Positions 14,420 to 64,000 of a stretch of DNA of 64,000 nt are shown one piece after another. This DNA comes from Eledone cirrhosa. Its lineage: Eukaryota. The notes beneath the pieces were generated by a model that was not told the DNA's origin, did not search any database, and saw only the letters and a list, made by a program, of their open reading frames with translations. Both the position numbers and the translations under genes were made by a program. The DNA lies in the NCBI GenBank assembly GCA_964016885.1, contig OZ024754.1, positions 24,986,001 through 25,050,000 of the forward strand. The letters are read 5' to 3'. Each line of letters opens with the position of its first letter. Position 1 is the first letter of the stretch.

Positions 14420-14890
14420 GATAGAGTGTCCGTGTTGATTGCTCGGATCACATACACACACACACACACACACACACCACCACCTTCAGCCCTCCCCGCT
14501 CGGACACCCCGTCTCCCTCTCCCCACTCCACCCGCCACCACCCCTACTCACCCCACAACCTTCCACCACCTGTTTACCCCCCTTTTAATTTCAGTTTATT
14601 TTGATCATGCCTTTATTTTTAAATTTTCTCATTCCTTGTATTTTGATCATGCTTTATTTTTATTTTTTATCTTTATTTGTTATTTTTTCATTCGCACCGT
14701 TTCCTTTCGCTATATGTCTCTCCACCACTCCCTACACACCTTTTGAACTCTGTTCCCACACACTTCTCACCTGAGGAAGGGCTTATGCCCGAAACGTCGT
14801 CCCCCACCTACCCCCTACTCTCCTGAGCGTGAAATTAATAAACATTTATTGTACTGCCTCTCTGTTTTGTCCCTGTTCAAATTTTTCCAT
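14420..14890 (+). mobile_element. Probable PLE pseudo-LTR remnant with a degenerate hammerhead-like core
   Basis: Pyrimidine-rich leader, then CTGAGGA-A-GGGC-TTAT-GCCC-GAAA-CGTCG-TC (14771-14801) and AATAAA. No stem I partner is visible. Confidence 0.5.
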
Positions 14891-22176: not shown

Positions 22177-22405
22177 TAACGTTCAACCATCTGGCAGAAA
22201 GGTATACGGTGCTGATGATAGCTAACAAGCTTGAAACTAGTACGTCGTTCCTGTGTCATTGTTGAACAAAAAGGTGACGTGGTTGCCTTAACACCGTACG
22301 GCATAAATTCAGGCTGTTCAGTTTGTTTACAAACGAACAAAGCGGGCGCTATAATAAGCGTCCGCTAAACTGATACGTACATATATGTATGTGTACCTGT
22401 ATGTA

Positions 22406-22447
<42 letters not shown>

Positions 22448-22580
22448 GGTATATATATATATATATATGTGCATGCTACTGTACGTCTGTATACATATAT
22501 CTATGTACGTATACATACATACTTACATTTAAGTAAGTGCCGTACTAAGAGTGAGAAATGAAATTACGTTTTCATTTTAT
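22177..22580 (+). mobile_element. Solo dispersed copy of satellite monomer A (retrozyme-like)
   Basis: Diverged homologue of 31617-31830 and of the TACTGTACGTCTG...GTGCCGTACTAAGAGTGAGAAAT block at 31412-31500. Confidence 0.85.
22206..22248 (+). ncRNA. Minimal type I hammerhead ribozyme (family A)
   Basis: ACGGTG-CTGATGA-TAGC-TAACAA-GCTT-GAAA-CTAG-TA-CGTCGT. Confidence 0.85.
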
Positions 22581-22584
22581 TACA

Positions 22585-29784: not shown

Positions 29785-29835
29785 AGATTCCTGATGATTT
29801 CTAATGAATGAAACAGTTCTAGTCCTGTAGAATCT
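29785..29835 (+). ncRNA. Type I hammerhead ribozyme in a 125-bp island (29726-29851)
   Basis: AGATTC-CTGATGA-TTTC-TAAT-GAAT-GAAA-CAG-TTCTAGTC-CTG-TA-GAATCT. All three stems pair; GUA site. Confidence 0.88.
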
Positions 29836-30902: not shown

Positions 30903-31102
30903 NNNNNNNNNNNNNNNNNNNNNNNNNNNNNNNNNNNNNNNNNNNNNNNNNNNNNNNNNNNNNNNNNNNNNNNNNNNNNNNNNNNNNNNNNNNNNNNNNN
31001 NNNNNNNNNNNNNNNNNNNNNNNNNNNNNNNNNNNNNNNNNNNNNNNNNNNNNNNNNNNNNNNNNNNNNNNNNNNNNNNNNNNNNNNNNNNNNNNNNNNN
31101 NN
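30903..31102. other. Assembly gap (200 N)
   Basis: Run of N. Physical adjacency of the two halves is not proven. Confidence 0.99.
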
Positions 31103-31941
<839 letters not shown>

Positions 31942-32109: not shown

Positions 32110-32647
32110 ATTTGTGATGGTCAGTAAGAATGTTTCTGATTTCGAAAATTGATATATATTTTATATTCTTAAAAAATTTTTCAACGTGTAGAAACACAAT
32201 GTATAGAAGCATTTTTTCTAAATTCTGTGTAAAATGATCTATTTGTTAAAAACCTAAAAAAATCAATTTTACAAATCAGAAGTAAATATTTCTAAAAGTA
32301 TAAACAAATTGATTATTATAGGTTTTTCACAAATTGATCATTTTACACAGTATTTCGAAAATTGTTTTTTTACAAAAAAGATTGATTTTTCTTCTTTAGA
32401 AATATATACTTTCTGATTTTGAAAATTGATATATATTTTGTATTTTTCAAAAATTTTTCAACGTGACGAAACACAATGTATAAACGCATTCTTTTGAAAA
32501 AAAAACATTTTTTCCAAATACTGTGTTTTACACAGTATGGTCAATTTGTTAAAAACCTAAAAAAATCAATTTTAGAAATCAGAAGTAAATATTTCGAAAA
32601 GTATAAACAAATCGATTATTTTAGGTTTTTCACAAATTGATCATTTT
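32110..32647. repeat. AT-rich spacer C: diverged ~277-bp dimer with dyad symmetry
   Basis: TTTCTGATTT.GAAAATTGATATATATTTT at ~32134 and ~32410; internal inverted repeat CTGTGTAAAATGATC/GATCATTTTACACAG. Recurs in each cycle and is expanded with an inverted copy at 48300-49420. Confidence 0.88.
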
Positions 32648-39050
<6,403 letters not shown>

Positions 39051-39075
39051 ATATATATATATGTGTGACTGTATG

Positions 39076-39159
<84 letters not shown>

Positions 39160-40014
39160 CATGCTACTGTACGTCTGTATGCATATATGTATGTACGTAT
39201 ACATACATACTTACATTTAAGTAAGTGCCGTACTAAGAATCAGAAATTTCATTTCATTTCATTCTATTCCATTTTAGCGTTTTCGGTGCGCCTGGCCGAC
39301 TGAACTCACTCAATATGCAAATTAGGCTGCTCAGCCGTTAATTTTCATAAGGAAAGTATATACTTTCGAACGTTCAACGCTGACGATAGCTAACAAACTT
39401 GAAACTAGTACATCGTAACTCTGTAAGTGTTGAACAAAAAGGTGACGTGGTTGCCTTAACACCGTACGGCATAAATCAGGCTGTCCGTTTGTTTACAAAC
39501 AGACAAAGCGAGCATTATAATAAATGTTCGTTAAACTGATATGTACATATATATATGTGTGCCTTTATGTATATATATATATATACATGCTACTGTACGT
39601 CTGTATGCATATATGTATGTACGTATACATATATACTTACATTTAAGTAAGTGCCGTACTAAGAGTGAGAAATTAAATTTCATTTCATTCTATTCCATTT
39701 TATCGTTTTCGGTGCGCCTGGCCGACTGAACTCACTCGATATGCAAATCAGTCTGCTCAGCCGTTAATTTTCATAAGGAAAGTATATAGTTTCGAACGTT
39801 CAACCATCTGGCAGAAGGGTATACGGTGCTGACGATAGCTAACAAGCTTGAAACTAGTACATCGATCCTGTGTCAGTGTTGAACAAAAAGTTGGCGTGGT
39901 TGCCTTAACACCGTACGGCATAAATCAGGCTGTCCATTTGTTTACAAACGGACAAAGCGAGCATTATAATAGAAGTTCACTAAACTGATACGTACATATA
40001 AATATGTGTCCCTG

Positions 40015-40131
<117 letters not shown>

Positions 40132-40134
40132 GTG

Positions 40135-40173
<39 letters not shown>

Positions 40174-41826
40174 TAGTAGTAGTAAGGTTTTCGATGTTGT
40201 GATAATGATTAGCAGCGATGTGTGTCAAATGGCTATTAAGATAAGTGTGTGTGTGTATGTGTGTGTGTGTGTGTGTGAGTGTGTGTGTGTGTAGCAGAGT
40301 AATTTGTGATGGTCAGTATGAATGTTTCTGATTTCGAAAATTGATATATATTTTATATTCTTAAAAAATTTTTCAACGTGTAGAAACACAATGTATAGAA
40401 GCATTTTTTCTAAATTCTGTGTAAAATGATCTATTTGTTAAAAACCTAAAAAAATCAATTTTACAAATCAGAAGTAAATATTTCTAAAAGTATAAACAAA
40501 TTGATTATTATAGGTTTTTCACAAATTGATCATTTTACACAGTATTTCGAAAATTGTTTTTTTACAAAAAAGATTGATTTTTTTTCTTTCGAAATATATA
40601 CTTTCTCATTTTGAAAATTGATATATATTTTGTATTTTTCAAAAATTTTTCAACGTGACGAAACACAATGTATAAACGCATTCTTTTGAAAAAAAAACAT
40701 TTTTTCCAAATACTGTGTTTTACACAGTATGGTCAATTTGTTAAAAACCTAAAAAAATCAATTTTAGAAATCAGAAGTAAATATTTCGAAAAGTATAAAC
40801 AAATCGATTATTTTAGGTTTTTCACAAATTGATCATTTTATTACATATCCAGTGCTTTTATCGAGAATGACACAGCTAGAGACTTATAGAATACTTAGCT
40901 GTGTACAGGAACTGGTTTGAAAGAGCGGTTGCCGGTCCGGCAGAAATTAGAAATTGGATTAAATGCTCTGAAATAGCGATATATATGTGAAGATAGACAT
41001 AGAATATTCGAAAATATTCTGTATGTTTATAATAAACATTTTGAAGACCTAATCGCTATAGAATAGAATACGTCACGTATTACAATTAGATTCTCGATAA
41101 AAGCAAGGGAAGTAACCTACGCGTTTCATTCTTATTAGAAATCTTCAGGATTACATATCCAGTGCTTTTATCGAGAATGACACAGCTAGAGACTTATAGA
41201 ATACTTAGCTGTGTACAGGAACTGGTTTGAAAGAGCGGTTGCCGGTCCGGCAGAAATTAGAAATTGGAATAAATGCTCTGAAATAGCGATATATATGTGA
41301 AGATAGACATAGAATATTCGAAAATATTCTGTATGTTTATAATAAACATTTTGAAGACCTAATCGCTATAGAATAGAATACGTCACGTATTACAATTAGA
41401 TTCTCGATAAAAGCAAGGGAAGTAACCTACGCGTTTCATTCTTATTAGAAATCTTCAGGATTACATATCCAGTGCTTTTATCGAGAATGACACAGCTAGA
41501 GACTTATAGAATACTTAGCTGTGTACAGGAACTGGTTTGAAAGAGCGGTTGCCGGTCCGGCAGAAATTAGAAATTGGAATAAATGCTCTAAAATAGCGAT
41601 ATATATGTGAAGATAGACATAGAATATTCGAAAATATTCTGTATGTTTATAATAAACATTTTGAAGACCTAATCGCTATAGAATAGAATATGTCACGTAT
41701 TACAATTAGATTCTCGATAAAAGCAAGGGAAGTAACCTACGCGTTTCATTCTTATTAGAAATCTTCAGGATTACATATCCAGTGCTTTTATATATATATA
41801 TACATATATATATACATATACATATA

Positions 41827-41860
<34 letters not shown>

Positions 41861-41974
41861 CATATACATATATATATATATGTATACATATATATACATA
41901 TATATATATACATATACATATATATATATACATATACATATATATATATACATATATATATATACATACATATT

Positions 41975-42111
<137 letters not shown>

Positions 42112-42118
42112 GTATACA

Positions 42119-42156
<38 letters not shown>

Positions 42157-43357
42157 CAAATATATATATATACATATATATATATACATATATATATATA
42201 GAAATTGGATTAAATGCTCTGAAATAGCGATATATATGTGAAGATAGACATAGAATATTCGAAAATATTCTGTATGTTTATAATAAACATTTTGAAGACC
42301 TAATCGCTACGTATTACAATTAGATTCTCGATAAAAGCAAGGGAAGTAACCTACGCGTTTCATTCTTATTAGAAATCTTCAGGATTACATATCCAGTGCT
42401 TTTATCGAGAATGACACAGCTAGAGACTTATAGAATACTTAGCTGTGTACAGGAACTGGTTTGAAAGAGCCGTTGCCGGTCCGGCAGAAATTAGAAATTG
42501 GATTAAATGCTCTGAAATAGCGATATATATGTGAAGATAGACATAGAATATTCGAAAACATTCTGTGTTTATAATAAACATTTTGAAGACCTAATACAAT
42601 ACGTCACGTATTACAATTAGATTCTCGATAAAAGCAAGGGAAGTAACCTACGAGTTTCATTCTTATTAGAAATCTTCAGGATTACATATCCAGTGCTTTT
42701 ATCGAGAATGACACAGCTAGAGACTTATAGAATACTTAGCTGTGTACAGGAACTGGTTTGAAAGAGCGGTTGCCGGTCCGGCAGAAATTAGAAATTGGAA
42801 TAAATGCTCTGAAATAGCGATATATATGTGAAGATAGACATAGAATATTCGAAAATATTCTGTATGTTTATAATAAACATTTTGAAGACCTAATCGCTAT
42901 AGAATAGAATACGTCACGTATTACAATTAGATTCTCGATAAAAGCAAGGGAAGTAACCTACGCGTTTCATTCTTATTAGAAATCTTCAGGATTACATATC
43001 CAGTGCTTTTATCGAGAATGACACAGCTAGAGACTTATAGAATACTTAGCTGTGTACAGGAACTGGTTTGAAAGAGCGGTTGCCGGTCCGGCAGAAATTA
43101 GAAATTGGAATAAATGCTCTAAAATAGCGATATATATGTGAAGATAGACATAGAATATTCGAAAATATTCTGTATGTTTATAATAAACATTTTGAAGACC
43201 TAATCGCTATAGAATAGAATATGTCACGTATTACAATTAGATTCTCGATAAAAGCAAGGGAAGTAACCTACGCGTTTCATTCTTATTAGAAATCTTCAGG
43301 ATTACATATCCAGTGCTTATATATATATATATACATATATATATACATATACATATA

Positions 43358-43391
<34 letters not shown>

Positions 43392-43505
43392 CATATACAT
43401 ATATATATATATGTATACATATATATACATATATATATATACATATACATATATATATATACATATACATATATATATATACATATATATATATACATAC
43501 ATATT

Positions 43506-43642
<137 letters not shown>

Positions 43643-44576
43643 GTATACAAATATATATATATATATACATACATATATATATATATACAAATATATATAT
43701 ATACATATATATATATACATATATATATATAGAAATTGGATTAAATGCTCTGAAATAGCGATATATATGTGAAGATAGACATAGAATATTCGAAAATATT
43801 CTGTATGTTTATAATAAACATTTTGAAGACCTAATCGCTACGTATTACAATTAGATTCTCGATAAAAGCAAGGGAAGTAACCTACGCGTTTCATTCTTAT
43901 TAGAAATCTTCAGGATTACATATCCAGTGCTTTTATCGAGAATGACACAGCTAGAGACTTATAGAATACTTAGCTGTGTACAGGAACTGGTTTGAAAGAG
44001 CCGTTGCCGGTCCGGCAGAAATTAGAAATTGGATTAAATGCTCTGAAATAGCGATATATATGTGAAGATAGACATAGAATATTCGAAAACATTCTGTGTT
44101 TATAATAAACATTTTGAAGACCTAATACAATACGTCACGTATTACAATTAGATTCTCGATAAAAGCAAGGGAAGTAACCTACGAGTTTCATTCTTATTAG
44201 AAATCTTCAGGATTACATATCCAGTGCTTTTATCGAGAATGACACAGCTAGAGACTTATAAAATACTTAGCTGTGTACAGGAACTGGTTTGAAAGAGCGG
44301 TTGCCGGTCCGGCAGAAATTAGAAATTGGATTAAATGCTCTGAAATAGCGGTATATATGTGAAGATAGACATAGAATATTCGAAAATATTCTGTATGTTT
44401 ATAATAAACATTTTGAAGACCTAATCGCTATAGAATAGAATACGTCACGTATTACAATTAGATTCTCGATAAAAGCAAGGGAAGTAACCTACGCGTTTCA
44501 TTCTTATTAGAAATCTTCAGGATTACATATCCAGTGCTTTTATATATATATACATATATATATACATATACATATA

Positions 44577-44627
<51 letters not shown>

Positions 44628-44724
44628 ATATATGTATACATATATATACATATATATATATACATATACATATATATATATACATATACATATATATATA
44701 TACATATATATATATACATACATA

Positions 44725-44765
<41 letters not shown>

Positions 44766-44772
44766 GTATACA

Positions 44773-44808
<36 letters not shown>

Positions 44809-45440
44809 CAATTATATATATATACATATATATATATACATATATATATATAGAAATTGGATTAAATGCTCTGATATAGCGATATATATGTGAAGATAGA
44901 CATAGAATATTCGAAAATATTCTGTATGTTTATAATAAACATTTTGAAGACCTAATCGCTATAGAATAGAATACGTCACGTATTACAATTAGATTCTCGA
45001 TAAAAGCAAGTGAAGTAACCTACGCGTTTCATTCTTATTAGAAATCTTCAGGATTACATATCCAGTGCTTTTATCGAGAATGACACAGCTAGAGACCTAT
45101 AGAATACTTAGCTGTGTACAGGAACTGGTTTGAAAGAGCGGTTGCCGGTCCGGCAGTAATTAGAAATTGGATTAAATGCTCTGAAATAGCGATATATATG
45201 TGAAGATAGACATAGAATATTCGAAAATATTCTGTATGTTTATAATAAACATTTTGAAGACCTAATCGCTATAGAATAGAATACGTCACGTATTACAATC
45301 AGATTCTCGATAAAAGCAAGGGAAGTAATCTACGCGTTTCATTCTTATTAGAAATCTTCAGTGCTTTTATCGAGAATGACACAGCTAGAGACTTATAGAA
45401 TACTTATAGAATACTTATTTGTATATATATATATATACAA

Positions 45441-45489
<49 letters not shown>

Positions 45490-45659
45490 GAAATTGGATT
45501 AAATGCTCTGAAATAGCGATATATATGTGAACATAGACATAGAATATTCGAAAATATTCTGTATGTTTATAATAAACATTTTGAAGACCTAATCGCTATA
45601 GAAGACCTATACGTCACGTATTACAATTAGATTTACATATATATATGTGTGACTGTATG

Positions 45660-45726
<67 letters not shown>

Positions 45727-46571
45727 TTAAATATATATACATGCTACTGTACGTCTGTATGCATATATGTATGTACGTATACATACATACTTACATTTAA
45801 GTAAGTGCCGTACTAAGAATCAGAAATTTCATTTCATTTCATTCTATTCCATTTTAGCGTTTTCGGTGCGCCTGGCCGACTGAACTCACTCAATATGCAA
45901 ATTAGGCTGCTCAGCCGTTAATTTTCATAAGGAAAGTATATACTTTCGAACGTTCAACGCTGACGATAGCTAACAAACTTGAAACTAGTACATCGTAACT
46001 CTGTAAGTGTTGAACAAAAAGGTGACGTGGTTGCCTTAACACCGTACGGCATAAATCAGGCTGTCCGTTTGTTTACAAACAGACAAAGCGAGCATTATAA
46101 TAAATGTTCGTTAAACTGATATGTACATATATATATGTGTGCCTTTATGTATATATATATATATACATGCTACTGTACGTCTGTATGCATATATGTATGT
46201 ACGTATACATATATACTTACATTTAAGTAAGTGCCGTACTAAGAGTGAGAAATTAAATTTCATTTCATTCTATTCCATTTTATCGTTTTCGGTGCGCCTG
46301 GCCGACTGAACTCACTCGATATGCAAATCAGGCTGCTCAGCCGTTAATTTTCATAAGGAAAGTATATAGTTTCGAACGTTCAACCATCTGGCAGAAGGGT
46401 ATACGGTGCTGACGATAGCTAACAAGCTTGAAACTAGTACATCGATCCTGTGTCAGTGTTGAACAAAAAGTTGGCGTGGTTGCCTTAACACCGTTTGTTT
46501 ACAAACGGACAAAGCGAGCATTATAATAGAAGTTCACTAAACTGATACGTACATATAAATATGTGTCCCTG

Positions 46572-46608
<37 letters not shown>

Positions 46609-48122
46609 ATATATATACATGTGTGTGTGCGTGTGTGTGTGTGTGTGTGTAGTAGTAGTAGTAAGGTTTTCGATATTGTGATAATGGTTAGCAGCGATGT
46701 GTGTCAAATGGCTATTAAGATAAGTGTGTGTGTGTATGTGTGTGTGTGTGTGAGTGTGTGTGTAGCAGAGTAATTTGTGATGGTCAGTAAGAATGTTTCT
46801 GATTTCGAAAATTGATATATATTTTATATTCTTAAAAAATTTTTCAGAAACACAATGTATAAAAGCATTTTTTCTAAATTCTGTGTAAAATGATCTATTT
46901 GTTAAAAACATAAAAAAATCAATTTTACAAATCAGAAGTAAATATTTCTAAAAGTATAAACAAATTGATTATTATAGGTTTTTCACAAATTGATCATTTT
47001 ACACAGTATTTAGAAAATTGTTTTTTTACAAAAAAGATTGATTTTTTTTCTTTGGAAATATATACTTTCTGATTTTGAAAATTGATATATATTTTGTATT
47101 TTTCAAAAATGTTTCAACGTGACGAAACACAATGTATAAACGCATTCTTTTGAAAAAAAAACATTTTTTCCAAATACTGTGTTTTACACAGCATGGTCAA
47201 TTTGTTAAAAACCTAAAAAAATCAATTTTAGAAATCAGAAGTAAATATTTCGAAAAGTATAAACAAATCGATTATTTTAGGTTTCTCACAAATTGATCAT
47301 TTTATTACATATCCAGTGCTTTTATCGAGAATGACACAGCTAGAGACTTATAGAATACTTAGCTGTGTACAGGAACTGGTTTGAAAGAGCGGTTGCCGGT
47401 CCGGCAGAAATTAGAAATTGGATTAAATGCTCTGAAATAGCGATATATATGTGAAGATAGACATAGAATATTCGAAAATATTCTGTATGTTTATAATAAA
47501 CATTTTGAAGACCTAATCGCTATAGAATAGAATACGTCACGTATTACAATTAGATTCTCGATAAAAGCAAGGGAAGTAACCTACGCGTTTCATTCTTATT
47601 AGAAATCTTCAGGATTACATATCCAGTGCTTTTATCGAGAATGACACAGCTAGAGACTTTTAGAATACTTAGCTGTGTACAGGAACTGGTTTGAAAGAGC
47701 GGTTACCGGTCCGGCAGAAATTAGAAATTGGAATAAATGCTCTGAAATAGCGATATATATGTGAAGATAGACATAGAATATTCGAAAATATTCTGTATGT
47801 TTATAATAAACATTTTGAAGACCTAATCGCTATAGAATAGAATACGTCACGTATTACAATTAGATTCTCGATAAAAGCAAGGGAAGTAACCTACGCGTTT
47901 CATTCTTATTAGAAATCTTCAGGATTACATATCCAGTGCTTTTATCGAGAATGACACAGCTAGAGACTTATAGAATACTTAGCTGTGTACAGGAACTGGT
48001 TTGAAAGAGCGGTTGCCGGTCCGGCAGAAATTAGAAATTGGAATAAATGCTCTAAAATAGCGATATATATGTGAAGATAGACATAGAATATTCGAAAATA
48101 TATATATATATATATACATGTG

Positions 48123-48161
<39 letters not shown>

Positions 48162-50720
48162 TAGTAGTAGTAAGGTTTTCGATGTTGTGATAATGGTTAG
48201 CAGCGATGTGTGTCAAATGGCTATTAAGATAAGTGTGTGTGTGTATGTGTGTATGTGTGTGAGTGTGTGTGTGTGTAGCAGAGTAATTTGTGATGGTCAG
48301 TAAGAATGTTTCTGATTTCGAAAATTGATATATATTTTATATTCTTAAAAAATTTTTCAACGTGTAGAAACACAATGTATAAAAGCATTTTTTCTAAATT
48401 CTGTGTAAAATGATCTATTTGTTAAAAACCTAAAAAAATCAATTTTACAAATCAGAAGTAAATATTTCTAAAAGTATAAACAAATTGATTATTATAGATT
48501 TTTCACAAGTTGATCATTTTACACAGTATTTCGAAAAATTGTTTTTTTTCAAAAAAGATTGATTTTTTTTTCTTTCGGAATATAAAATTTCTGATTTCGA
48601 AAATTGATATATATTTTGTATCTTTTAAAAATTTTTGAATCTGCCGTAACAATGTATAAACGCATTTTTTTGAAAACTAACAATTTTTCGAAATACTGTG
48701 TAAAATGATCAGCTTGTGAAAAACCTAAAATAATTAATTTGTTTATACTTTTCGAAATATTTACTTCTGATTTCTAAAATTAATTTTTTTAGGTTTTTAA
48801 CAAATTGACCATTTTACACAGTATTTATAAAAAATGTCTGTTCTCAAAAGAATGAGTTTATACATTGTGTTACGACACGTTGAAAAATTTTTGAAAAATA
48901 CAAAATATATATCAATTTTTGAAATCATAAAGTATATATTTCGAAAGAAACAAAATCAATCTTTTTTGAAAAAAAACATTTTTTCCAAATACTGTGTAAA
49001 ATGATTTATTTGTGAAAAACCTAAAAAAAATCAATTTTAGAAATCAGAAGTAAATATTTCTAAAAGTATAAACAAATTGATTATTATAGGTTTTTCACAA
49101 ATTGATCATTTTACACAGTATTTTGAAAATTGTTCTTTTACAAAAAAGATTGATTTTTTTTTCTTTCGAAATATATACTTTCTGATTTTAAAAATTGATA
49201 TATATTTTGTATTTTTCAAAAATTTTTCAACGTGACGAAACACAATGTATAAACGCATTCTTTTGATAAAAAAACATTTTTTCCAAATACTGTGTTTTAC
49301 ACAGTATGGTCAATTTGTTAAAAACCTAAAAAAATCAATTTTAGAAATCAGAAGTAAATATTTCGAAAAGTATAAACAAATCGATTATTTTAGGTTTTTC
49401 ACAAATTGATCATTTTATTACATATCCAGTGTTACATATCCAGTGCTTTTATCGAGAATGACACAGCTAGAGACTTATAGAATGCTTAGCTGTGTACAGG
49501 AACTGGTTTGAAAGAGCGGTTGCCGGTCCGGCAGAAATTAGAAATTGGATTAAATGCTCTGAAATAGCGATATATATGTGAAGATAGACATAGAATATTC
49601 GAAAATATTCTGTATGTTTATAATAAACATTTTGAAGACCTAATCGCTATAGAATACGTCACGTATTACAATTAGATTCTCGATAAAAGCAAGGGAAGTA
49701 ACCTACGCGTTTCATTCTTATTAGAAATCTTCAGGATTACATATCCAGTGCTTTTATCGAGAATGACACAGCTAGAGACTTATAGAATACTTAGCTGTGT
49801 ACAGGAACTGGTTTGAAAGAGCGGTTGCCGGTCCGGCAGAAATTAGAAATTGGATTAAATGCTCTGAAATAGCGATATATATGTGAAGATAGACATAGAA
49901 TATTCGAAAATATTCTGTATGTTTATAATAAACATTTTGAAGACCTAATCGCTATACAATAGAATACGTCACGTATTACAATTAGATTCTCGATAAAAGT
50001 AAGGGAAGTAACCTACGCGTTTCATTCTTATTAGAAATCTTCAGGATTACATATCCAGTGCTTTTATCGAGAATGACACAGCTAGAGACTTATAGAATAC
50101 TTAGCTGTGTACAGGAACTGGTTTGAAAGAGCGGTTGCCGGTCCGGCAGAAATTAGAAATTGGAATAAATGCTCTGAAATAGCGATATATATGTGAAGAT
50201 AGACATAGAATATTCGAAAATATTTTGTATGTTTATAATAAACATTTTGAAGACCTAATCGCTATAGAATAGAATACGTCACGTATTACAATTAGATTCT
50301 CGATAAAAGCAAGGGAAGTAACCTACGCGTTTCATTCTTATTAGAAATCTTCAGGATTACATATCCAGTGCTTTTATCGAGAATGACACAGCTAGAGACT
50401 TATAGAATACTTAGCTGTGTACAGGAACTGGTTTGAAAGAGCGGTTGCCGGTCCGGCAGAAATTAGAAATTGGAATAAATGCTCTAAAATAGCGATATAT
50501 ATGTGAAGATAGACATAGAATATTCGAAAATATTCTGTATGTTTATAATAAACATTTTGAAGACCTAATCGCTATAGAATAGAATATGTCACGTATTACA
50601 ATTAGATTCTCGATAAAAGCAAGGGAAGTAACCTACGCGTTTCATTCTTATTAGAAATCTTCAGCATTACATATCCAGTGCTTTTATATATATATACATA
50701 TATATATACATATACATATA

Positions 50721-50754
<34 letters not shown>

Positions 50755-50863
50755 CATATACATATATATATATATGTATACATATATATACATATATATA
50801 TATACATATACATATATATATATACATATACATATATATATATACATATATATATATACATAC

Positions 50864-51014
<151 letters not shown>

Positions 51015-51016
51015 CA

Positions 51017-51056
<40 letters not shown>

Positions 51057-51945
51057 CAAATATATATATATACATATATATATATACATATATATATATA
51101 GAAATTGGATTAAATGCTCTGAAATAGCGATATATATGTGAAGATAGACATAGAATATTCGAAAATATTCTGTATGTTTATAATAAACATTTTGAAGACC
51201 TAATCGCTACGTATTACAATTAGATTCTCGATAAAAGCAAGGGAAGTAACCTACGCGTTTCATTCTTATTAGAAATCTTCAGGATTACATATCCAGTGCT
51301 TTTATCGAGAATGACACAGCTAGAGACTTATAGAATACTTAGCTGTGTACAGGAACTGGTTTGAAAGAGCCGTTGCCGGTCCGGCAGAAATTAGAAATTG
51401 GATTAAATGCTCTGAAATAGCGATATATATGTGAAGATAGACATAGAATATTCGAAAACATTCTGTGTTTATAATAAACATTTTGAAGACCTAATACAAT
51501 ACGTCACGTATTACAATTAGATTCTCGATAAAAGCAAGGGAAGTAACCTACGAGTTTCATTCTTATTAGAAATCTTCAGGATTACATATCCAGTGCTTTT
51601 ATCGAGAATGACACAGCTAGAGACTTATAAAATACTTAGCTGTGTACAGGAACTGGTTTGAAAGAGCGGTTGCCGGTCCGGCAGAAATTAGAAATTGGAT
51701 TAAATGCTCTGAAATAGCGATATATATGTGAAGATAGACATAGAATATTCGAAAATATTCTGTATGTTTATAATAAACATTTTGAAGACCTAATCGCTAT
51801 AGAATAGAATACGTCACGTATTACAATTAGATTCTCGATAAAAGCAAGGGAAGTAACCTACGCGTTTCATTCTTATTAGAAATCTTCAGGATTACATATC
51901 CAGTGCTTTTATATATATATACATATATATATACATATACATATA

Positions 51946-51979
<34 letters not shown>

Positions 51980-52090
51980 CATATACATATATATATATAT
52001 ATGTATACATATATATACATATATATATATACATATACATATATATATATACATATACATATATATATATACATATATATATATACATAC

Positions 52091-52255
<165 letters not shown>

Positions 52256-52257
52256 CA

Positions 52258-52303
<46 letters not shown>

Positions 52304-52857
52304 CAAATATATATATATACATATATATATATACATATATATATATAGAAATTGGATTAAATGCTCTGATATAGCGATATATATGTGAAGATAGACATAG
52401 AATATTCGAAAATATTCTGTATGTTTATAATAAACATTTTGAAGACCTAATCGCTATAGAATAGAATACGTCACGTATTACAATTAGATTCTCGATAAAA
52501 GCAAGTGAAGTAACCTACGCGTTTCATTCTTATTAGAAATCTTCAGGATTACATATCCAGTGCTTTTATCGAGAAATTATTAGAAATCTTCAGGATTACA
52601 TATCCAGTGCTTTTATCGAGAATGACACATAGAATATTCGAAAATATTCTGTATGTTTATAATAAACATTTTGAAGACCTAATCGCTATAGAATAGAATA
52701 CGTCACGTATTACAATCAGATTCTCGATAAAAGCAAGGGAAGTAACCTACGCGTTTCATTCCTATAAGAAATCTTCAGTGCTTTTATCGAGAATGACACA
52801 GCTAGAGACTTATAGAATACTTATAGAATACTTATTTGTATATATATATATATACAA

Positions 52858-52906
<49 letters not shown>

Positions 52907-53125
52907 GAAATTGGATTAAATGCTCTGAAATAGCGATATATATGTATTACAATCAGATTCTCGATAAAAGCAAGGGAAGTAACCTACGCGTTTCATTCTT
53001 ATTAATGAAATAGCGATATATACGTATGTATATATCGCTATTTCAGTGCTTTTATCGAGAATGACACAGCTAGAGACTTATAGAATACTTATAGAATACT
53101 TATTTGTATATATATATATATACAA

Positions 53126-53174
<49 letters not shown>

Positions 53175-53343
53175 GAAATTGGATTAAATGCTCTGAAATA
53201 GCGATATATATGTGAACATAGACATAGAATATTCGAAAATATTCTGTATGTTTATAATAAACATTTTGAAGACCTAATCGCTATAGAATAGAATACGTCA
53301 CGTATTACAATTAGATTTACATATATATATGTGTGACTGTATG

Positions 53344-53429
<86 letters not shown>

Positions 53430-54284
53430 CATGCTACTGTACGTCTGTATGCATATATGTATGTACGTATACATACATACTTACATTTAAGTAAGTGCCG
53501 TACTAAGAATCAGAAATTTCATTTCATTTCATTCTATTCCATTTTAGCGTTTTCGGTGCGCCTGGCCGACTGAACTCACTCAATATGCAAATTAGGCTGC
53601 TCAGCCGTTAATTTTCATAAGGAAAGTATATACTTTCGAACGTTCAACGCTGACGATAGCTAACAAACTTGAAACTAGTACATCGTAACTCTGTAAGTGT
53701 TGAACAAAAAGGTGACGTGGTTGCCTTAACACCGTACGGCATAAATCAGGCTGTCCGTTTGTTTACAAACAGACAAAGCGAGCATTATAATAAATGTTCG
53801 TTAAACTGATATGTACATATATATATGTGTGCCTTTATGTATATATATATATATACATGCTACTGTACGTCTGTATGCATATATGTATGTACGTATACAT
53901 ATATACTTACATTTAAGTAAGTGCCGTACTAAGAGTGAGAAATTAAATTTCATTTCATTCTATTCCATTTTATCGTTTTCGGTGCGCCTGGCCGACTGAA
54001 CTCACTCGATATGCAAATCAGTCTGCTCAGCCGTTAATTTTCATAAGGAAAGTATATAGTTTCGAACGTTCAACCATCTGGCAGAAGGGTATACGGTGCT
54101 GACGATAGCTAACAAGCTTGAAACTAGTACATCGATCCTGTGTCAGTGTTGAACAAAAAGTTGGCGTGGTTGCCTTAACACCGTACGGCATAAATCAGGC
54201 TGTCCATTTGTTTACAAACGGACAAAGCGAGCATTATAATAGAAGTTCACTAAACTGATACGTACATATAAATATGTGTCCCTG

Positions 54285-54411
<127 letters not shown>

Positions 54412-54414
54412 GTG

Positions 54415-54453
<39 letters not shown>

Positions 54454-56100
54454 TAGTAGTAGTAAGGTTTTCGATGTTGTGATAATGATTAGCAGCGATG
54501 TGTGTCAAATGGCTATTAAGATAAGTGTGTGTGTGTATGTGTGTGTGTGTGTGAGTGTGTGTGTGTGTAGCAGAGTAATTTGTGATGGTCAGTATGAATG
54601 TTTCTGATTTCGAAAATTGATATATATTTTATATTCTTAAAAAATTTTTCAACGTGTAGAAACACAATGTATAGAAGCATTTTTTCTAAATTCTGTGTAA
54701 AATGATCTATTTGTTAAAAACCTAAAAAAATCAATTTTACAAATCAGAAGTAAATATTTCTAAAAGTATAAACAAATTGATTATTATAGGTTTTTCACAA
54801 ATTGATCATTTTACACAGTATTTCGAAAATTGTTTTTTTACAAAAAAGATTGATTTTTTTTCTTTCGAAATATATACTTTCTCATTTTGAAAATTGATAT
54901 ATATTTTGTATTTTTCAAAAATTTTTCAACGTGACGAAACACAATGTATAAACGCATTCTTTTGAAAAAAAAACATTTTTTCCAAATACTGTGTTTTACA
55001 CAGTATGGTCAATTTGTTAAAAACCTAAAAAAATCAATTTTAGAAATCAGAAGTAAATATTTCGAAAAGTATAAACAAATCGATTATTTTAGGTTTTTCA
55101 CAAATTGATCATTTTATTACATATCCAGTGCTTTTATCGAGAATGACACAGCTAGAGACTTATAGAATACTTAGCTGTGTACAGGAACTGGTTTGAAAGA
55201 GCGGTTGCCGGTCCGGCAGAAATTAGAAATTGGATTAAATGCTCTGAAATAGCGATATATATGTGAAGATAGACATAGAATATTCGAAAATATTCTGTAT
55301 GTTTATAATAAACATTTTGAAGACCTAATCGCTATAGAATAGAATACGTCACGTATTACAATTAGATTCTCGATAAAAGCAAGGGAAGTAACCTACGCGT
55401 TTCATTCTTATTAGAAATCTTCAGGATTACATATCCAGTGCTTTTATCGAGAATGACACAGCTAGAGACTTATAGAATACTTAGCTGTGTACAGGAACTG
55501 GTTTGAAAGAGCGGTTGCCGGTCCGGCAGAAATTAGAAATTGGAATAAATGCTCTGAAATAGCGATATATATGTGAAGATAGACATAGAATATTCGAAAA
55601 TATTCTGTATGTTTATAATAAACATTTTGAAGACCTAATCGCTATAGAATAGAATACGTCACGTATTACAATTAGATTCTCGATAAAAGCAAGGGAAGTA
55701 ACCTACGCGTTTCATTCTTATTAGAAATCTTCAGGATTACATATCCAGTGCTTTTATCGAGAATGACACAGCTAGAGACTTATAGAATACTTAGCTGTGT
55801 ACAGGAACTGGTTTGAAAGAGCGGTTGCCGGTCCGGCAGAAATTAGAAATTGGAATAAATGCTCTAAAATAGCGATATATATGTGAAGATAGACATAGAA
55901 TATTCGAAAATATTCTGTATGTTTATAATTAACATTTTGAAGACCTAATCGCTATAGAATAGAATATGTCACGTATTACAATTAGATTCTCGATAAAAGC
56001 AAGGGAAGTAACCTACGCGTTTCATTCTTATTAGAAATCTTCAGGATTACATATCCAGTGCTTTTATATATATATACATATATATATACATATACATATA

Positions 56101-56134
<34 letters not shown>

Positions 56135-56248
56135 CATATACATATATATATATATGTATACATATATATACATATATATATATACATATACATATATATA
56201 TATACATATACATATATATATATACATATATATATATACATACATATT

Positions 56249-56385
<137 letters not shown>

Positions 56386-56392
56386 GTATACA

Positions 56393-56430
<38 letters not shown>

Positions 56431-56459
56431 CAAATATATATATATACATATATATATGA

Positions 56460-59400
56460 ATATAGACATAGAATATTCGAAAATATTCTGTATGTTTATA
56501 ATAAACATTTTGAAGACCTAATCGCTATAGAATAGAATACGTCACGTATTACAATTAGATTCTCGATAAAAGCAAGGGAAGTAATCTACGCGTTTCATTC
56601 TTGTTAGAAATCATCAGGACTACATATCCAGTGCTTTTATCGAGAATGACACAGCTAGAGACTTATAGAATACTTAGCTGTGTACAGGAACTGGTTTGAA
56701 AGAGCGGTTGCCGGTCCGGCAGAAATTAGAAATTGGAATAAATGCTCTGAAATAGCGATATATATGTGAATATAGACATAGAATATTCGAAAATATTCTG
56801 TATGTTTATAATAAACATTTTGAAGACCTAATCGCTATAGAATAGAATACGTCACGTATTACAATTAGATTCTCGATAAAAGCAAGGGAAGTAATCTACG
56901 CGTTTCATTCTTGTTAGAAATCATCAGGACTACATATCCAGTGCTTTTATCGAGAATGACACAGCTAGAGACTTATAGAATACTTAGCTGTGTACAGGAA
57001 CTGGTTTGAAAGAGCGGTTGCCGGTCCGGCAGAAATTAGAAATTGGAATAAATGCTCTGAAATAGCGATATATATGTGAATATAGACATAGAATATTCGA
57101 AAATATTCTGTATGTTTATAATAAACATTTTGAAGACCTAATCGCTATAGAATAGAATACGTCACGTATTACAATTAGATTCTCGATAAAAGCAAGGGAA
57201 GTAATCTACGCGTTTCATTCTTGTTAGAAATCATCAGGACTACATATCCAGTGCTTTTATCGAGAATGACACAGCTAGAGACTTATAGAATACTTAGCTG
57301 TGTACAGGAACTGGTTTGAAAGAGCGGTTGCCGGTCCGGCAGAAATTAGAAATTGGAATAAATGCTCTGAAATAGCGATATATATGTGAATATAGACATA
57401 GAATATTCGAAAATATTCTGTATGTTTATAATAAACATTTTGAAGACCTAATCGCTATAGAATAGAATACGTCACGTATTACAATTAGATTCTCGGTAAA
57501 AGCAAGGGAAGTAATCTACGCGTTTCATTCTTGTTAGAAATCATCAGGACTACATATCCAGTGCTTTTATCGAGAATGACACAGCTAGAGACTTATAGAA
57601 TACTTAGCTGTGTACAGGAACTGGTTTGAAAGAGCGGTTGCCGGTCCGGCAGAAATTAGAAATTGGAATAAATGCTCTGAAATAGCGATATATATGTGAA
57701 TATAGACATAGAATATTCGAAAATATTCTGTATGTTTATAATAAACATTTTGAAGACCTAATCGCTATAGAATAGAATACGTCACGTATTACAATTAGAT
57801 TCTCGATAAAAGCAAGGGAAGTAATCTACGCGTTTCATTCTTGTTAGAAATCATCAGGACTACATATCCAGTGCTTTTATCGAGAATGACACAGCTAGAG
57901 ACTTATAGAATACTTAGCTGTGTACAGGAACTGGTTTGAAAGAGCGGTTGCCGGTCCGGCAGAAATTAGAAATTGGAATAAATGCTCTGAAATAGCGATA
58001 TATATGTGAATATAGACATAGAATATTCGAAAATATTCTGTATGTTTATAATAAACATTTTGAAGACCTAATCGCTATAGAATAGAATACGTCACGTATT
58101 ACAATTAGATTCTCGATAAAAGCAAGGGAAGTAATCTACGCGTTTCATTCTTGTTAGAAATCATCAGGACTACATATCCAGTGCTTTTATCGAGAATGAC
58201 ACAGCTAGAGACTTATAGAATACTTAGCTGTGTACAGGAACTGGTTTGAAAGAGCGGTTGCCGGTCCGGCAGAAATTAGAAATTGGAATAAATGCTCTGA
58301 AATAGCGATATATATGTGAATATAGACATAGAATATTCGAAAATATTCTGTATGTTTATAATAAACATTTTGAAGACCTAATCGCTATAGAATAGAATAC
58401 GTCACGTATTACAATTAGATTCTCGATAAAAGCAAGGGAAGTAATCTACGCGTTTCATTCTTGTTAGAAATCATCAGGACTACATATCCAGTGCTTTTAT
58501 CGAGAATGACACAGCTAGAGACTTATAGAATACTTAGCTGTGTACAGGAACTGGTTTGAAAGAGCGGTTGCCGGTCCGGCAGAAATTAGAAATTGGAATA
58601 AATGCTCTGAAATAGCGATATATATGTGAATATAGACATAGAATATTCGAAAATATTCTGTATGTTTATAATAAACATTTTGAAGACCTAATCGCTATAG
58701 AATAGAATACGTCACGTATTACAATTAGATTCTCGATAAAAGCAAGGGAAGTAATCTACGCGTTTCATTCTTGTTAGAAATCATCAGGACTACATATCCA
58801 GTGCTTTTATCGAGAATGACACAGCTAGAGACTTATAGAATACTTAGCTGTGTACAGGAACTGGTTTGAAAGAGCGGTTGCCGGTCCGGCAGAAATTAGA
58901 AATTGGAATAAATGCTCTGAAATAGCGATATATATGTGAATATAGACATAGAATATTCGAAAATATTCTGTATGTTTATAATAAACATTTTGAAGACCTA
59001 ATCGCTATAGAATAGAATACGTCACGTATTACAATTAGATTCTCGATAAAAGCAAGGGAAGTAATCTACGCGTTTCATTCTTGTTAGAAATCATCAGGAC
59101 TACATATCCAGTGCTTTTATCGAGAATGACACAGCTAGAGACTTATAGAATACTTAGCTGTGTACAGGAACTGGTTTGAAAGAGCGGTTGCCGGTCCGGC
59201 AGAAATTAGAAATTGGAATAAATGCTCTGAAATAGCGATATATATGTGAATATAGACATAGAATATTCGAAAATATTCTGTATGTTTATAATAAACATTT
59301 TGAAGACCTAATCGCTATAGAATAGAATACGTCACGTATTACAATTAGATTCTCGATAAAAGCAAGGGAAGTAATCTACGCGTTTCATTCTTGTTAGAAA

Positions 59401-60142
59401 TCATCAGGACTACATATCCAGTGCTTTTATCGAGAATGACACAGCTAGAGACTTATAGAATACTTAGCTGTGTACAGGAACTGGTTTGAAAGAGCGGTTG
59501 CCGGTCCGGCAGAAATTAGAAATTGGAATAAATGCTCTGAAATAGCGATATATATGTGAATATAGACATAGAATATTCGAAAATATTCTGTATGTTTATA
59601 ATAAACATTTTGAAGACCTAATCGCTATAGAATAGAATACGTCACGTATTACAATTAGATTCTCGATAAAAGCAAGGGAAGTAATCTACGCGTTTCATTC
59701 TTGTTAGAAATCATCAGGACTACATATCCAGTGCTTTTATCGAGAATGACACAGCTAGAGACTTATAGAATACTTAGCTGTGTACAGGAACTGGTTTGAA
59801 AGAGCGGTTGCCGGTCCGGCAGAAATTAGAAATTGGAATAAATGCTCTGAAATAGCGATATATATGTGAATATAGACATAGAATATTCGAAAATATTCTG
59901 TATGTTTATAATAAACATTTTGAAGACCTAATCGCTATAGAATAGAATACGTCACGTATTACAATTAGATTCTCGATAAAAGCAAGGGAAGTAATCTACG
60001 CGTTTCATTCTTGTTAGAAATCATCAGGACTACATATCCAGTGCTTTTATCGAGAATGACACAGCTAGAGACTTATAGAATACTTAGCTGTGTACAGGAA
60101 CTGGTTTGAAAGAGCGGTTGCCGGTCCGGCAGAAATTAGAAA
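56460..60142 (-). repeat. Homogeneous run of 12 variant (B2) 310-bp monomers
   Basis: GTAATCTACGCG at 56581 + 310n through 59991. Only one substitution seen (near 57496). Confidence 0.97.
56581..56623 (-). ncRNA. Minimal type I hammerhead ribozyme (family B2), 12 copies
   Basis: Minus strand reads GTAGTC-CTGATGA-TTTCT-AACA-AGAAT-GAAA-CGCG-TA-GATTAC. Confidence 0.93.
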
Positions 60143-61003
60143 TATATATATATATATAGAAATTGGATTAAATGCTCTGAAATAGCGATATATATGTGAA
60201 GATAGACATAGAATATTCGAAAATATTCTGTATGTTTATAATAAACATTTTGAAGACCTAATCGCTACGTATTACAATTAGATTCTCGATAAAAGCAAGG
60301 GAAGTAACCTACGCGTTTCATTCTTATTAGAAATCTTCAGGATTACATATCCAGTGCTTTTATCGAGAATGACACAGCTAGAGACTTATAGAATACTTAG
60401 CTGTGTACAGGAACTGGTTTGAAAGAGCCGTTGCCGGTCCGGCAGAAATTAGAAATTGGATTAAATGCTCTGAAATAGCGATATATATGTGAAGATAGAC
60501 ATAGAATATTCGAAAACATTCTGTGTTTATAATAAACATTTTGAAGACCTAATACAATACGTCACGTATTACAATTAGATTCTCGATAAAAGCAAGGGAA
60601 GTAACCTACGAGTTTCATTCTTATTAGAAATCTTCAGGATTACATATCCAGTGCTTTTATCGAGAATGACACAGCTAGAGACTTATAAAATACTTAGCTG
60701 TGTACAGGAACTGGTTTGAAAGAGCGGTTGCCGGTCCGGCAGAAATTAGAAATTGGATTAAATGCTCTGAAATAGCGGTATATATGTGAAGATAGACATA
60801 GAATATTCGAAAATATTCTGTATGTTTATAATAAACATTTTGAAGACCTAATCGCTATAGAATAGAATACGTCACGTATTACAATTAGATTCTCGATAAA
60901 AGCAAGGGAAGTAACCTACGCGTTTCATTCTTATTAGAAATCTTCAGGATTACATATCCAGTGCTTTTATATATATATACATATATATATACATATACAT
61001 ATA

Positions 61004-61054
<51 letters not shown>

Positions 61055-61151
61055 ATATATGTATACATATATATACATATATATATATACATATACATAT
61101 ATATATATACATATACATATATATATATACATATATATATATACATACATA

Positions 61152-61192
<41 letters not shown>

Positions 61193-61199
61193 GTATACA

Positions 61200-61235
<36 letters not shown>

Positions 61236-61867
61236 CAATTATATATATATACATATATATATATACATATATATATATAGAAATTGGATTAAATGCTCTG
61301 ATATAGCGATATATATGTGAAGATAGACATAGAATATTCGAAAATATTCTGTATGTTTATAATAAACATTTTGAAGACCTAATCGCTATAGAATAGAATA
61401 CGTCACGTATTACAATTAGATTCTCGATAAAAGCAAGTGAAGTAACCTACGCGTTTCATTCTTATTAGAAATCTTCAGGATTACATATCCAGTGCTTTTA
61501 TCGAGAATGACACAGCTAGAGACCTATAGAATACTTAGCTGTGTACAGGAACTGGTTTGAAAGAGCGGTTGCCGGTCCGGCAGAAATTAGAAATTGGATT
61601 AAATGCTCTGAAATAGCGATATATATGTGAAGATAGACATAGAATATTCGAAAATATTCTGTATGTTTATAATAAACATTTTGAAGACCTAATCGCTATA
61701 GAATAGAATACGTCACGTATTACAATCAGATTCTCGATAAAAGCAAGGGAAGTAATCTACGCGTTTCATTCTTATTAGAAATCTTCAGTGCTTTTATGGA
61801 GAATGACACAGCTAGAGACTTATAGAATACTTATAGAATACTTATTTGTATATATATATATATACAA

Positions 61868-61916
<49 letters not shown>

Positions 61917-62086
61917 GAAATTGGATTAAATGCTCTGAAATAGCGATATATATGTGAACATAGACATAGAATATTCGAAAATATTCTGTATGTTTATAAT
62001 AAACATTTTGAAGACCTAATCGCTATAGAAGACCTATACGTCACGTATTACAATTAGATTTACATATATATATGTGTGACTGTATG

Positions 62087-62151
<65 letters not shown>

Positions 62152-62996
62152 TTAAATATATATACATGCTACTGTACGTCTGTATGCATATATGTATGTA
62201 CGTATACATACATACTTACATTTAAGTAAGTGCCGTACTAAGAATCAGAAATTTCATTTCATTTCATTCTATTCCATTTTAGCGTTTTCGGTGCGCCTGG
62301 CCGACTGAACTCACTCAATATGCAAATTAGGCTGCTCAGCCGTTAATTTTCATAAGGAAAGTATATACTTTCGAACGTTCAACGCTGACGATAGCTAACA
62401 AACTTGAAACTAGTACATCGTAACTCTGTAAGTGTTGAACAAAAAGGTGACGTGGTTGCCTTAACACCGTACGGCATAAATCAGGCTGTCCGTTTGTTTA
62501 CAAACAGACAAAGCGAGCATTATAATAAATGTTCGTTAAACTGATATGTACATATATATATGTGTGCCTTTATGTATATATATATATATACATGCTACTG
62601 TACGTCTGTATGCATATATGTATGTACGTATACATATATACTTACATTTAAGTAAGTGCCGTACTAAGAGTGAGAAATTAAATTTCATTTCATTCTATTC
62701 CATTTTATCGTTTTCGGTGCGCCTGGCCGACTGAACTCACTCGATATGCAAATCAGGCTGCTCAGCCGTTAATTTTCATAAGGAAAGTATATAGTTTCGA
62801 ACGTTCAACCATCTGGCAGAAGGGTATACGGTGCTGACGATAGCTAACAAGCTTGAAACTAGTACATCGATCCTGTGTCAGTGTTGAACAAAAAGTTGGC
62901 GTGGTTGCCTTAACACCGTTTGTTTACAAACGGACAAAGCGAGCATTATAATAGAAGTTCACTAAACTGATACGTACATATAAATATGTGTCCCTG

Positions 62997-63035
<39 letters not shown>

Positions 63036-64000
63036 ATATATATACATGTGTGTGTGCGTGTGTGTGTGTGTGTGTGTAGTAGTAGTAGTAAGGTTTTCGA
63101 TATTGTGATAATGGTTAGCAGCGATGTGTGTCAAATGGCTATTAAGATAAGTGTGTGTGTGTATGTGTGTGTGTGTGTGAGTGTGTGTGTAGCAGAGTAA
63201 TTTGTGATGGTCAGTAAGAATGTTTCTGATTTCGAAAATTGATATATATTTTATATTCTTAAAAAATTTTTCAGAAACACAATGTATAAAAGCATTTTTT
63301 CTAAATTCTGTGTAAAATGATCTATTTGTTAAAAACATAAAAAAATCAATTTTACAAATCAGAAGTAAATATTTCTAAAAGTATAAACAAATTGATTATT
63401 ATAGGTTTTTCACAAATTGATCATTTTACACAGTATTTAGAAAATTGTTTTTTTACAAAAAAGATTGATTTTTTTTCTTTGGAAATATATACTTTCTGAT
63501 TTTGAAAATTGATATATATTTTGTATTTTTCAAAAATGTTTCAACGTGACGAAACACAATGTATAAACGCATTCTTTTGAAAAAAAAACATTTTTTCCAA
63601 ATACTGTGTTTTACACAGCATGGTCAATTTGTTAAAAACCTAAAAAAATCAATTTTAGAAATCAGAAGTAAATATTTCGAAAAGTATAAACAAATCGATT
63701 ATTTTAGGTTTCTCACAAATTGATCATTTTATTACATATCCAGTGTTACATATCCAGTGCTTTTATCGAGAATGACACAGCTAGAGACTTATAGAATACT
63801 TAGCTGTGTACAGGAACTGGTTTGAAAGAGCGGTTGCCGGTCCGGCAGAAATTAGAAATTGGATTAAATGCTCTGAAATAGCGATATATATGTGAAGATA
63901 GACATAGAATATTCGAAAATATTCTGTATGTTTATAATAAACATTTTGAAGACCTAATCGCTATAGAATAGAATACGTCACGTATTACAATTAGATTCTC

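Follow-up and report, generated by a model that had tools for sequence, protein, structure and literature searches.

A hammerhead-bearing 310-bp tandem repeat in Eledone cirrhosa: predicted fold of the monomer and a near-uniform twelve-copy block within an (AT)n tract

General features of the locus

The window analysed here is a 64,000-nucleotide stretch of the Eledone cirrhosa genome assembly, and all positions are numbered from its first base. It contains an array of a tandem unit with a period of 310 bp, in which consecutive units each carry a type I hammerhead motif on the minus strand (Table 1). The minus strand has 58 matches to the hammerhead core in the window, and 12 of these belong to a single variant which forms one homogeneous block. 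Neighbouring copies in the local arrays differ by 1-3%, and the organisation into higher-order units indicates that the array has been reshaped by DNA-level duplication. G+C content is 0.34 in 58001-60000, which is within the range of retrozymes (<50%), and no stop-to-stop reading frame of at least 100 amino acids occurs in 56536-60884. The window is animal-type DNA with many (AT)n tracts and LINE remains, and its microsatellite content and a SINE-like repeat are reminiscent of coleoid cephalopods. The assembly is gapped, with a run of Ns at 30903-31102.

Table 1. Features of the 310-bp array, the twelve-copy block and its first full monomers (p, predicted pair probability).
Feature	Position	Strand	Basis or remarks
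Whole array region	32650..64000	-	46 near-full copies; older ones heterogeneous, with interrupting (AT)n tracts and higher-order duplications
Left part of interrupted (AT)n target tract	56065..56457	.	aligns to uninterrupted sister tract 41789-42200
Homogeneous block of one variant, 11.89 monomers	56458..60142	-	1 mismatch (57496) in 3,685 bp
Right remainder of (AT)n target tract	60143..60157	.	7 of 7 sister tracts continue through here without insert
Type I hammerhead	56581..56623	-	pattern scan; Rfam Hammerhead_HH9 aligns 56567-56632
One monomer in cleavage register, predicted self-cleaved RNA unit, 310 nt	56587..56896	-	310-bp period; register from GUA site
5' arm of 16-bp helix, distal extension of hammerhead stem I	56632..56647	-	inverted repeat, folds
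Body hairpin ACACAGCUA/UAGCUGUGU	56649..56683	-	mean p 0.98
Body hairpin, 5 bp, 3-nt loop	56709..56721	-	mean p 0.93
Body arm, closing helix ATAGCGAT/ATCGCTAT	56752..56838	-	p 0.57
Only (AT)4 stretch of the monomer, candidate priming site for nicked (AT)n target	56758..56767	+	junction match
Inner hairpin AGAAUAUU/AAUAUUCU of body arm	56780-56799	-	p 0.89
Body hairpin, 6 bp, 3-nt loop	56846..56860	-	mean p 0.89
3' arm of 16-bp helix	56869..56884	-	mean p 0.95, linear and circular folds

Four of the six sequencing runs (from four studies) that contain the stretch were compared with it. Run X2 yielded 671 contigs which match the stretch, 380 of them at 99% identity or more, so that the 310-bp family is large and varied in this run. 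Runs X1, X3 and X6 each yielded one 340-nt contig (310 + 30) at a depth of 10-15 with zero differences. These contigs carry no weight for a circle, because a tandem array yields such contigs too, and trace carry-over is a simple explanation for them. At window position 57222, about one third of the depth in run X2 has C in place of T. Read on the ribozyme strand this is A>G in the final nucleotide of loop 2, and it represents either an allele or editing.

A second retrozyme-like family with a 449-bp unit lies at 31204-31683 on the plus strand and is repeated at 39380, 45960, 53650 and 62385, with a lone copy at 22178-22584. Its hammerhead has the same U.U pair and AACA loop as that of the 310-bp unit, together with a palindromic stem III (ACUAGU), and the unit has an internal (AT)n hairpin and folds as a circle at z -5.9 with 65% of its bases paired. 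At 39047, 45633 and 62060 the 310-bp array directly abuts the AT-rich portion of a 449-bp unit that has the opposite orientation, and these junctions suggest that one retrozyme is nested in the other. A ribozyme-free repeat of about 280-300 bp with a G+C content of 0.18 is found at 32133-32648, with further copies before 40842, 47306, 49433 and 55118. It contains a 56-bp inverted repeat at 89% identity and is foldback-like, with a folding z of about -9.

A frameshifted Penelope-like remnant (10408-11062, minus strand) has a linker, a CX4CxxC motif and a GIY-YIG-like start, and adjoins an (AT)n tract. It is 41-48% identical to the sequence P0003, which itself has a weak GIY-YIG match (22 bits, cut-off 22.6), and a Pfam search with two Penelope fragments returned no families. 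An intact-looking LINE frame of 1,135 amino acids (5682-9089, plus strand) encodes endonuclease, reverse transcriptase and PHD domains. Two further motifs lie on the plus strand. A lone hammerhead-like motif at 14771-14798 resembles the hammerheads of Penelope pseudo-LTRs; its stem II has 4 bp, is rich in G+C and is preceded by an extra base, and its palindrome is ACGU. A 28-nt match (89%) to the core of the 310-bp family at 29789-29814 has a shortened stem II loop and unrelated flanks.

The hammerhead motif

The hammerhead has a 6-bp stem I (56618-56623 paired with 56581-56586), a 4-bp stem II closed by U.U with an AACA loop (56597-56610), and a 2-bp stem III within the palindrome ACGCGU. The core sequences CUGAUGA (56611-56617) and GAAA (56593-56596) are intact, and the core is identical in all 12 copies of the block. 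Cleavage is predicted after GUA, between 56587 and 56586. The canonical metazoan type I motif, as given in PMC4209133, has a helix I of 6 bp, a helix II of 4 bp and a helix III of 1-2 bp with a palindromic loop, and the motif described here matches this geometry in its helix lengths, its palindromic loop and its intact CUGANGA/GAAA/NUH core. The G10.1-C11.1 pair is missing and U.U is found in its place. Many of the metagenome matches to a loose hammerhead pattern also have a U at 10.1/11.1 with paired stems. Searches with the Rfam hammerhead families (clan CL00010) gave no match at gathering level, and Hammerhead_HH9 scored 19.2 bits (E 0.058) against a gathering score of 52. The pattern scan found no hammerhead core on the plus strand of the unit. 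A type III reading was rejected, as NUH is absent before stem I in such an order.

Two differences in stem I between the block variant and other copies both preserve pairing (G-U/A-U and U-A/U-G). Self-pairing of the ACGCGU 8-mer is predicted at -9.5 kcal/mol. Six older copies (35450, 37291, 42653, 44184, 51553 and 60611) have ACUCGU in place of the palindrome, and the predicted self-pairing is abolished in this variant (0.0 compared to -9.5 kcal/mol), so that these copies are a naturally occurring control for cleavage in dimers.

The fold of lowest predicted energy is not that of the active hammerhead. Stem II has a pair probability of 0.14 and stem III of 0.0 in the circle, and constraining a 91-nt fragment to the hammerhead fold costs 6.7 kcal/mol, a penalty to be read with the caveat that nearest-neighbour models are without tertiary contacts and treat the 2-nt loop as impossible.

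Folding of the monomer

A preliminary description of this DNA listed 12 motif strings for the monomer at 56581-56890, the first full copy of the block, and each of them occurs there once. It proposed folding the circular minus-strand monomer against shuffled controls, and in this comparison the monomer folds better than chance: the free energy is -67.8 kcal/mol (z -4.9) and none of 150 shuffles is as low. The cleaved linear monomer folds at -72.5 kcal/mol (z -4.4, 0 of 150 shuffles as low; z -4.38 and 0 of 100 in a repeat). Among 42 control windows of 310 nt from the same DNA, 40 have z above -3.5, and the two exceptions, at z about -9, are both strands of the ribozyme-free palindromic repeat at 32150. 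Since a palindromic DNA repeat without a ribozyme reaches such a score, circular RNA is not the only source of a low z. Folding of the opposite (plus) strand gives z -5.5, so the score does not distinguish the strands either. The fold of the monomer is real, yet it is neither strand-specific nor diagnostic of a circle.

The statement that the monomer folds almost completely is not borne out, as 57% (linear) to 60% (circular) of the bases are paired compared to 55.5 +/- 4.2% in 60 shuffled circles. When the hammerhead and the long helix are removed, the remaining 218-nt body folds at z -2.2, and a single shuffle among 150 is equally low. All the hairpin strings of the preliminary description are present, and its individual hairpins need some correction. 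One-base loops, as drawn for TGCCGG-T-CCGGCA and AATACGT-C-ACGTATT, are impossible, and these elements fold instead with 5 bp and 6 bp, respectively, and 3-nt loops. The TGTTTAT/ATAAACA pairing and the long-range helix which closes the body arm are only partly populated (p 0.36 and 0.57).

The perfect inverted pair reported to flank the hammerhead is present, but it is 16 bp long on the minus strand and not 15 bp. In 300 dinucleotide-shuffled sequences the longest such perfect repeat ranges from 6 to 14 bp, and none reaches 15 bp. In the predicted fold, stem I is followed outwards by a 3/1 internal loop, 3 bp and a 2/2 loop, and then by the 16-bp helix, which is thereby predicted to be the outer part of stem I and to hold the two cut ends together. 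This helix had been thought to close only in a circle or multimer. Its mean pair probability is 0.95 in both the cleaved linear monomer and the circle, and it also forms when 56581-56890 is folded linearly. That interval excluded one of the arms flanking the hammerhead (56559-56573), and the same pairs join both ends of the unit-length linear RNA. Because the same base pairs form in the linear monomer, the helix says nothing for or against a circular form.

The related proposal that the helix brings the cleaved ends together stands as a prediction, the folded linear monomer pairing base 1 with base 279 and bases 13-28 with 250-265. The 3' arm is predicted to pair with the 5' arm of the same unit in the monomer or circle, and with the neighbouring arm 56942-56957 in the uncleaved multimer. 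The arms close their own hammerhead in a modelled 770-nt precursor (p 0.95-0.98), and the two halves of stem I are predicted to remain paired after cleavage (-31 kcal/mol).

Covariation was examined in 18 copies, chosen by hand among the 46 near-full ones so as to differ from one another. Two-sided changes were seen in none of 89 pairs, and in the two varying pairs of the long helix the changes only break pairing. The test has little power because the copies are 99% alike.

The twelve-copy block

Joining the flanks of the block gives a sequence that aligns to the unbroken (AT)n tract at 41789-42200. Comparison of filled and empty sites leaves a difference of 0-4 nt, which varies with the assignment of AT units as the insert lies inside a microsatellite, where any target-site duplication would be masked. 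Five nearly fixed differences separate the block from the other copies; for example, monomer position 23 is G in the 12 block copies and A in 50 others, and position 40 is C in 12, T in 46 and a gap in 4. The block is therefore not a local expansion of its neighbours. Four of the five differences (positions 5, 23, 33 and 40, at 56585, 56603, 56613 and 56620) lie inside the 45-nt hammerhead, all at tolerant positions. RNA editing was rejected as the source of the one mismatch in the block, which is T>C on the ribozyme strand where editing gives A>G.

Numbered from the 56581-56890 monomer, the block starts at position 188 and ends at position 152, and the cleavage site is at 6/7, so that neither end lies at the cut. 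A uniform multimer with its ends away from the cut site is as expected from reverse transcription round one circle. The left junction has 9 of 10 identities to (AT)5, and only one of the 310 monomer positions is so matched, whereas the other junction has 5 of 10. The matching side is the one expected if the nicked plus-strand end of the (AT)n tract primed on the hammerhead-bearing strand, although agreement with the ribozyme strand as template amounts to a 1-in-2 coincidence only. Older arrays start at positions 41 (no AT tract) and 147 (2-nt match), without the priming pattern, and the junction argument concerns a single event noticed after the fact. The block fits microsatellite-primed rolling-circle reverse transcription; much the same product would result from DNA-templated copying, primed by microhomology on a uniform array or a DNA circle, or from copying of a linear transcript that had not been cleaved.

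Proposed life cycle and alternative explanations

The 310-bp unit is, in all likelihood, a non-LTR retrozyme, whose transcript would cleave itself, have its ends held by the helix, be closed into a circle by a host ligase and be copied into (AT)n tracts by a Penelope-type reverse transcriptase. Within a tandem minus-strand transcript, each pair of arms is predicted to close its own hammerhead. Judging from relatives, cleavage would be slow by the single ribozyme and better by a double hammerhead formed via the ACGCGU palindrome. A monomer cut from the multimer would at first be held to its neighbours and would need to exchange partners before its own ends could pair; once both cuts have been made, the arms are predicted to swap in this way, leaving the 5' and 3' ends of the monomer paired with each other as a nicked hammerhead. 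Such a structure would place the 5'-OH and the 2',3'-cyclic phosphate close together and would require no prior circle. Relatives also suggest that RtcB-type ligation, not self-ligation, would close the circle: in PMC7229834, RtcB circularised 30 to >80% of related monomers and self-ligation 1-3%. The block could then have been produced by target-primed reverse transcription that started at the (AU)4 of the RNA and made some 12 circuits of a single circle. The CX4CxxC linkers of Penelope-like elements have been proposed to target (TA)n (PMC8557442), and the window contains the remnant with this motif, no intact element being seen.

That a Penelope-type enzyme nicked (TA)n, the end annealed to the (AU)4 of a circular RNA and 11.9 rounds were copied is a proposal we judge to be evenly poised between right and wrong. 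A possible, if rather unlikely, alternative keeps the family as a retrozyme and has the block copied from DNA, a break in (AT)n being repaired by microhomology-primed synthesis on an array or an extrachromosomal DNA circle. Microhomology priming predicts the 9 of 10 junction match equally well, the region has plainly been reshaped by duplication of DNA, and the abundance of the family in run X2 means that homogeneous donors may exist. However, the local neighbours diverge by 1-3% while the block has a single mismatch throughout its length, and priming is on the side predicted for a template carrying the ribozyme, with the value of a coin toss noted above.

It is more doubtful that the template of reverse transcription was a long linear transcript left uncleaved, the hammerhead being too weak and circles irrelevant. 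The U.U at stem II and the 2-bp stem III would be in keeping with this, as would an active fold that is not the predicted minimum, and a similar axolotl motif, HHR_Amex2, was only 22% cleaved in an hour as a monomer (PMC7229834). The same paper reports that this motif cleaves far better as a dimer and that circles make up about half of the monomer RNA, and the core of the 310-bp unit is intact in every block copy, with the variant differences keeping stem I paired.

Very little favours an inert satellite whose palindromes derive from its history as DNA, or identical copies created artefactually during assembly. The adjoining ribozyme-free repeat does fold better than the monomer, and the assembly is gapped. 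Against this, the hammerhead is complete, its three stems following each other as expected, its shape recurs in the distinct 449-bp family nearby, and the sequences on either side of the block, once rejoined, match the sister tract to within 0-4 nt. Older copies retain their differences, and so copies have not in general been flattened by assembly. The headline reading of the preliminary description, that an almost fully paired monomer with a helix closing only in a circle or multimer points to a circle, is scarcely credible, for although the helix exceeds chance and a topology enclosing the hammerhead needs covalent continuity across the cut site, linear and circular pair probabilities are equal and the paired fraction is close to that of shuffled sequence.

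The folding claim is ordinary and overstated, and what merits further attention is the fresh insertion. Branched folding of a tandem unit with a hammerhead, as the preliminary description had it, exceeds chance here and has already been published for retrozyme circles (PMC7229834), and it is no proof that a circle exists. That retrozyme circles are copied into new sites by a rolling-circle process is presented as a hypothesis in PMC7229834, and PMC8557442 names in vitro systems for Penelope priming as lacking. The near-uniform 12-mer, the empty sister sites and the single matching priming stretch together offer a concrete substrate, primer and product. If the proposal is true, the AU tract inside the monomer would serve to bind the primer and so steer the element into microsatellites, and the unfilled sister tracts nearby in the window would allow direct comparison of substrate and product.

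Comparison with known systems

Searches with the monomer found no matches in viral contigs or in prokaryote genomes. The loose hammerhead pattern identified 86 metagenome loci, two of which match the monomer, only over the 32-nt core. The literature searched, largely openly available papers, contained no description of the 310-bp family or of such a junction.

Hammerhead viroids and viroid-like RNAs resemble the 310-bp unit in their size near 300 nt, their branched predicted fold and processing by hammerheads, which is predicted here. The term viroid-like, used in the preliminary description, is apt in this loose sense of size and branching and goes no further, since the repeat is part of a chromosome and only one of its strands has a hammerhead. 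The unit differs from hammerhead viroids in forming a chromosomal array, in having its ribozyme on one strand, where it is not locked by a complementary strand, and in being about 60% paired. A viroid or viroid-like replicon was rejected on the grounds of the chromosomal array and the lack of a plus-strand core, viroids having no DNA form and usually ribozymes in both polarities.

The hammerheads of Penelope-like pseudo-LTRs are also type I and tandem, and the elements likewise insert into (TA)n, where they show no discernible target-site duplication (PMC4209133, PMC8557442 and bioRxiv 10.64898/2026.07.22.740005). Unlike Penelope-like elements, the 310-bp array has no reading frame inside or beside it, and helix II is 4 bp here compared to 7-8 bp in the minimal Penelope hammerheads. 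No reverse transcriptase-endonuclease frame, as would accompany a Penelope pseudo-LTR, lies beside the array; the left 31 kb has only the 28-nt core match at 29789; and no homology was seen between the monomer and the Penelope remnant of the window. The 2026 preprint (10.64898/2026.07.22.740005) links non-LTR retrozymes to Penelope pseudo-LTRs.

Axolotl HHR_Amex2 (Rtz_353) shares with the 310-bp unit a U.U at the base of helix II, a 2-bp helix III, a unit of about 350 nt and best activity as a dimer, the last of these predicted here (PMC7229834). Its helix III is described there as capped by a tetraloop, whereas here there is a 2-nt loop within a 6-nt palindrome, and the two are likened by description and not by sequence.

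Metazoan non-LTR retrozymes, as described in PMC7229834, have a tandem unit of 150-450 bp with a G+C content <50%, one type I hammerhead per unit and no protein, with a self-paired predicted circle and Penelope-like elements in the same genome, and the 310-bp unit shares all of these. It is unrelated to them in sequence outside the core, as far as searched, and differs in its perfect 16-bp extension of stem I and in the presence, within a single window, of a filled site together with seven empty ones. Those elements have been shown to be expressed and to form circles; for the 310-bp unit both are predictions. With cleavage and circular RNA as predictions, the 310-bp unit fits the non-LTR retrozymes on every feature computed here.
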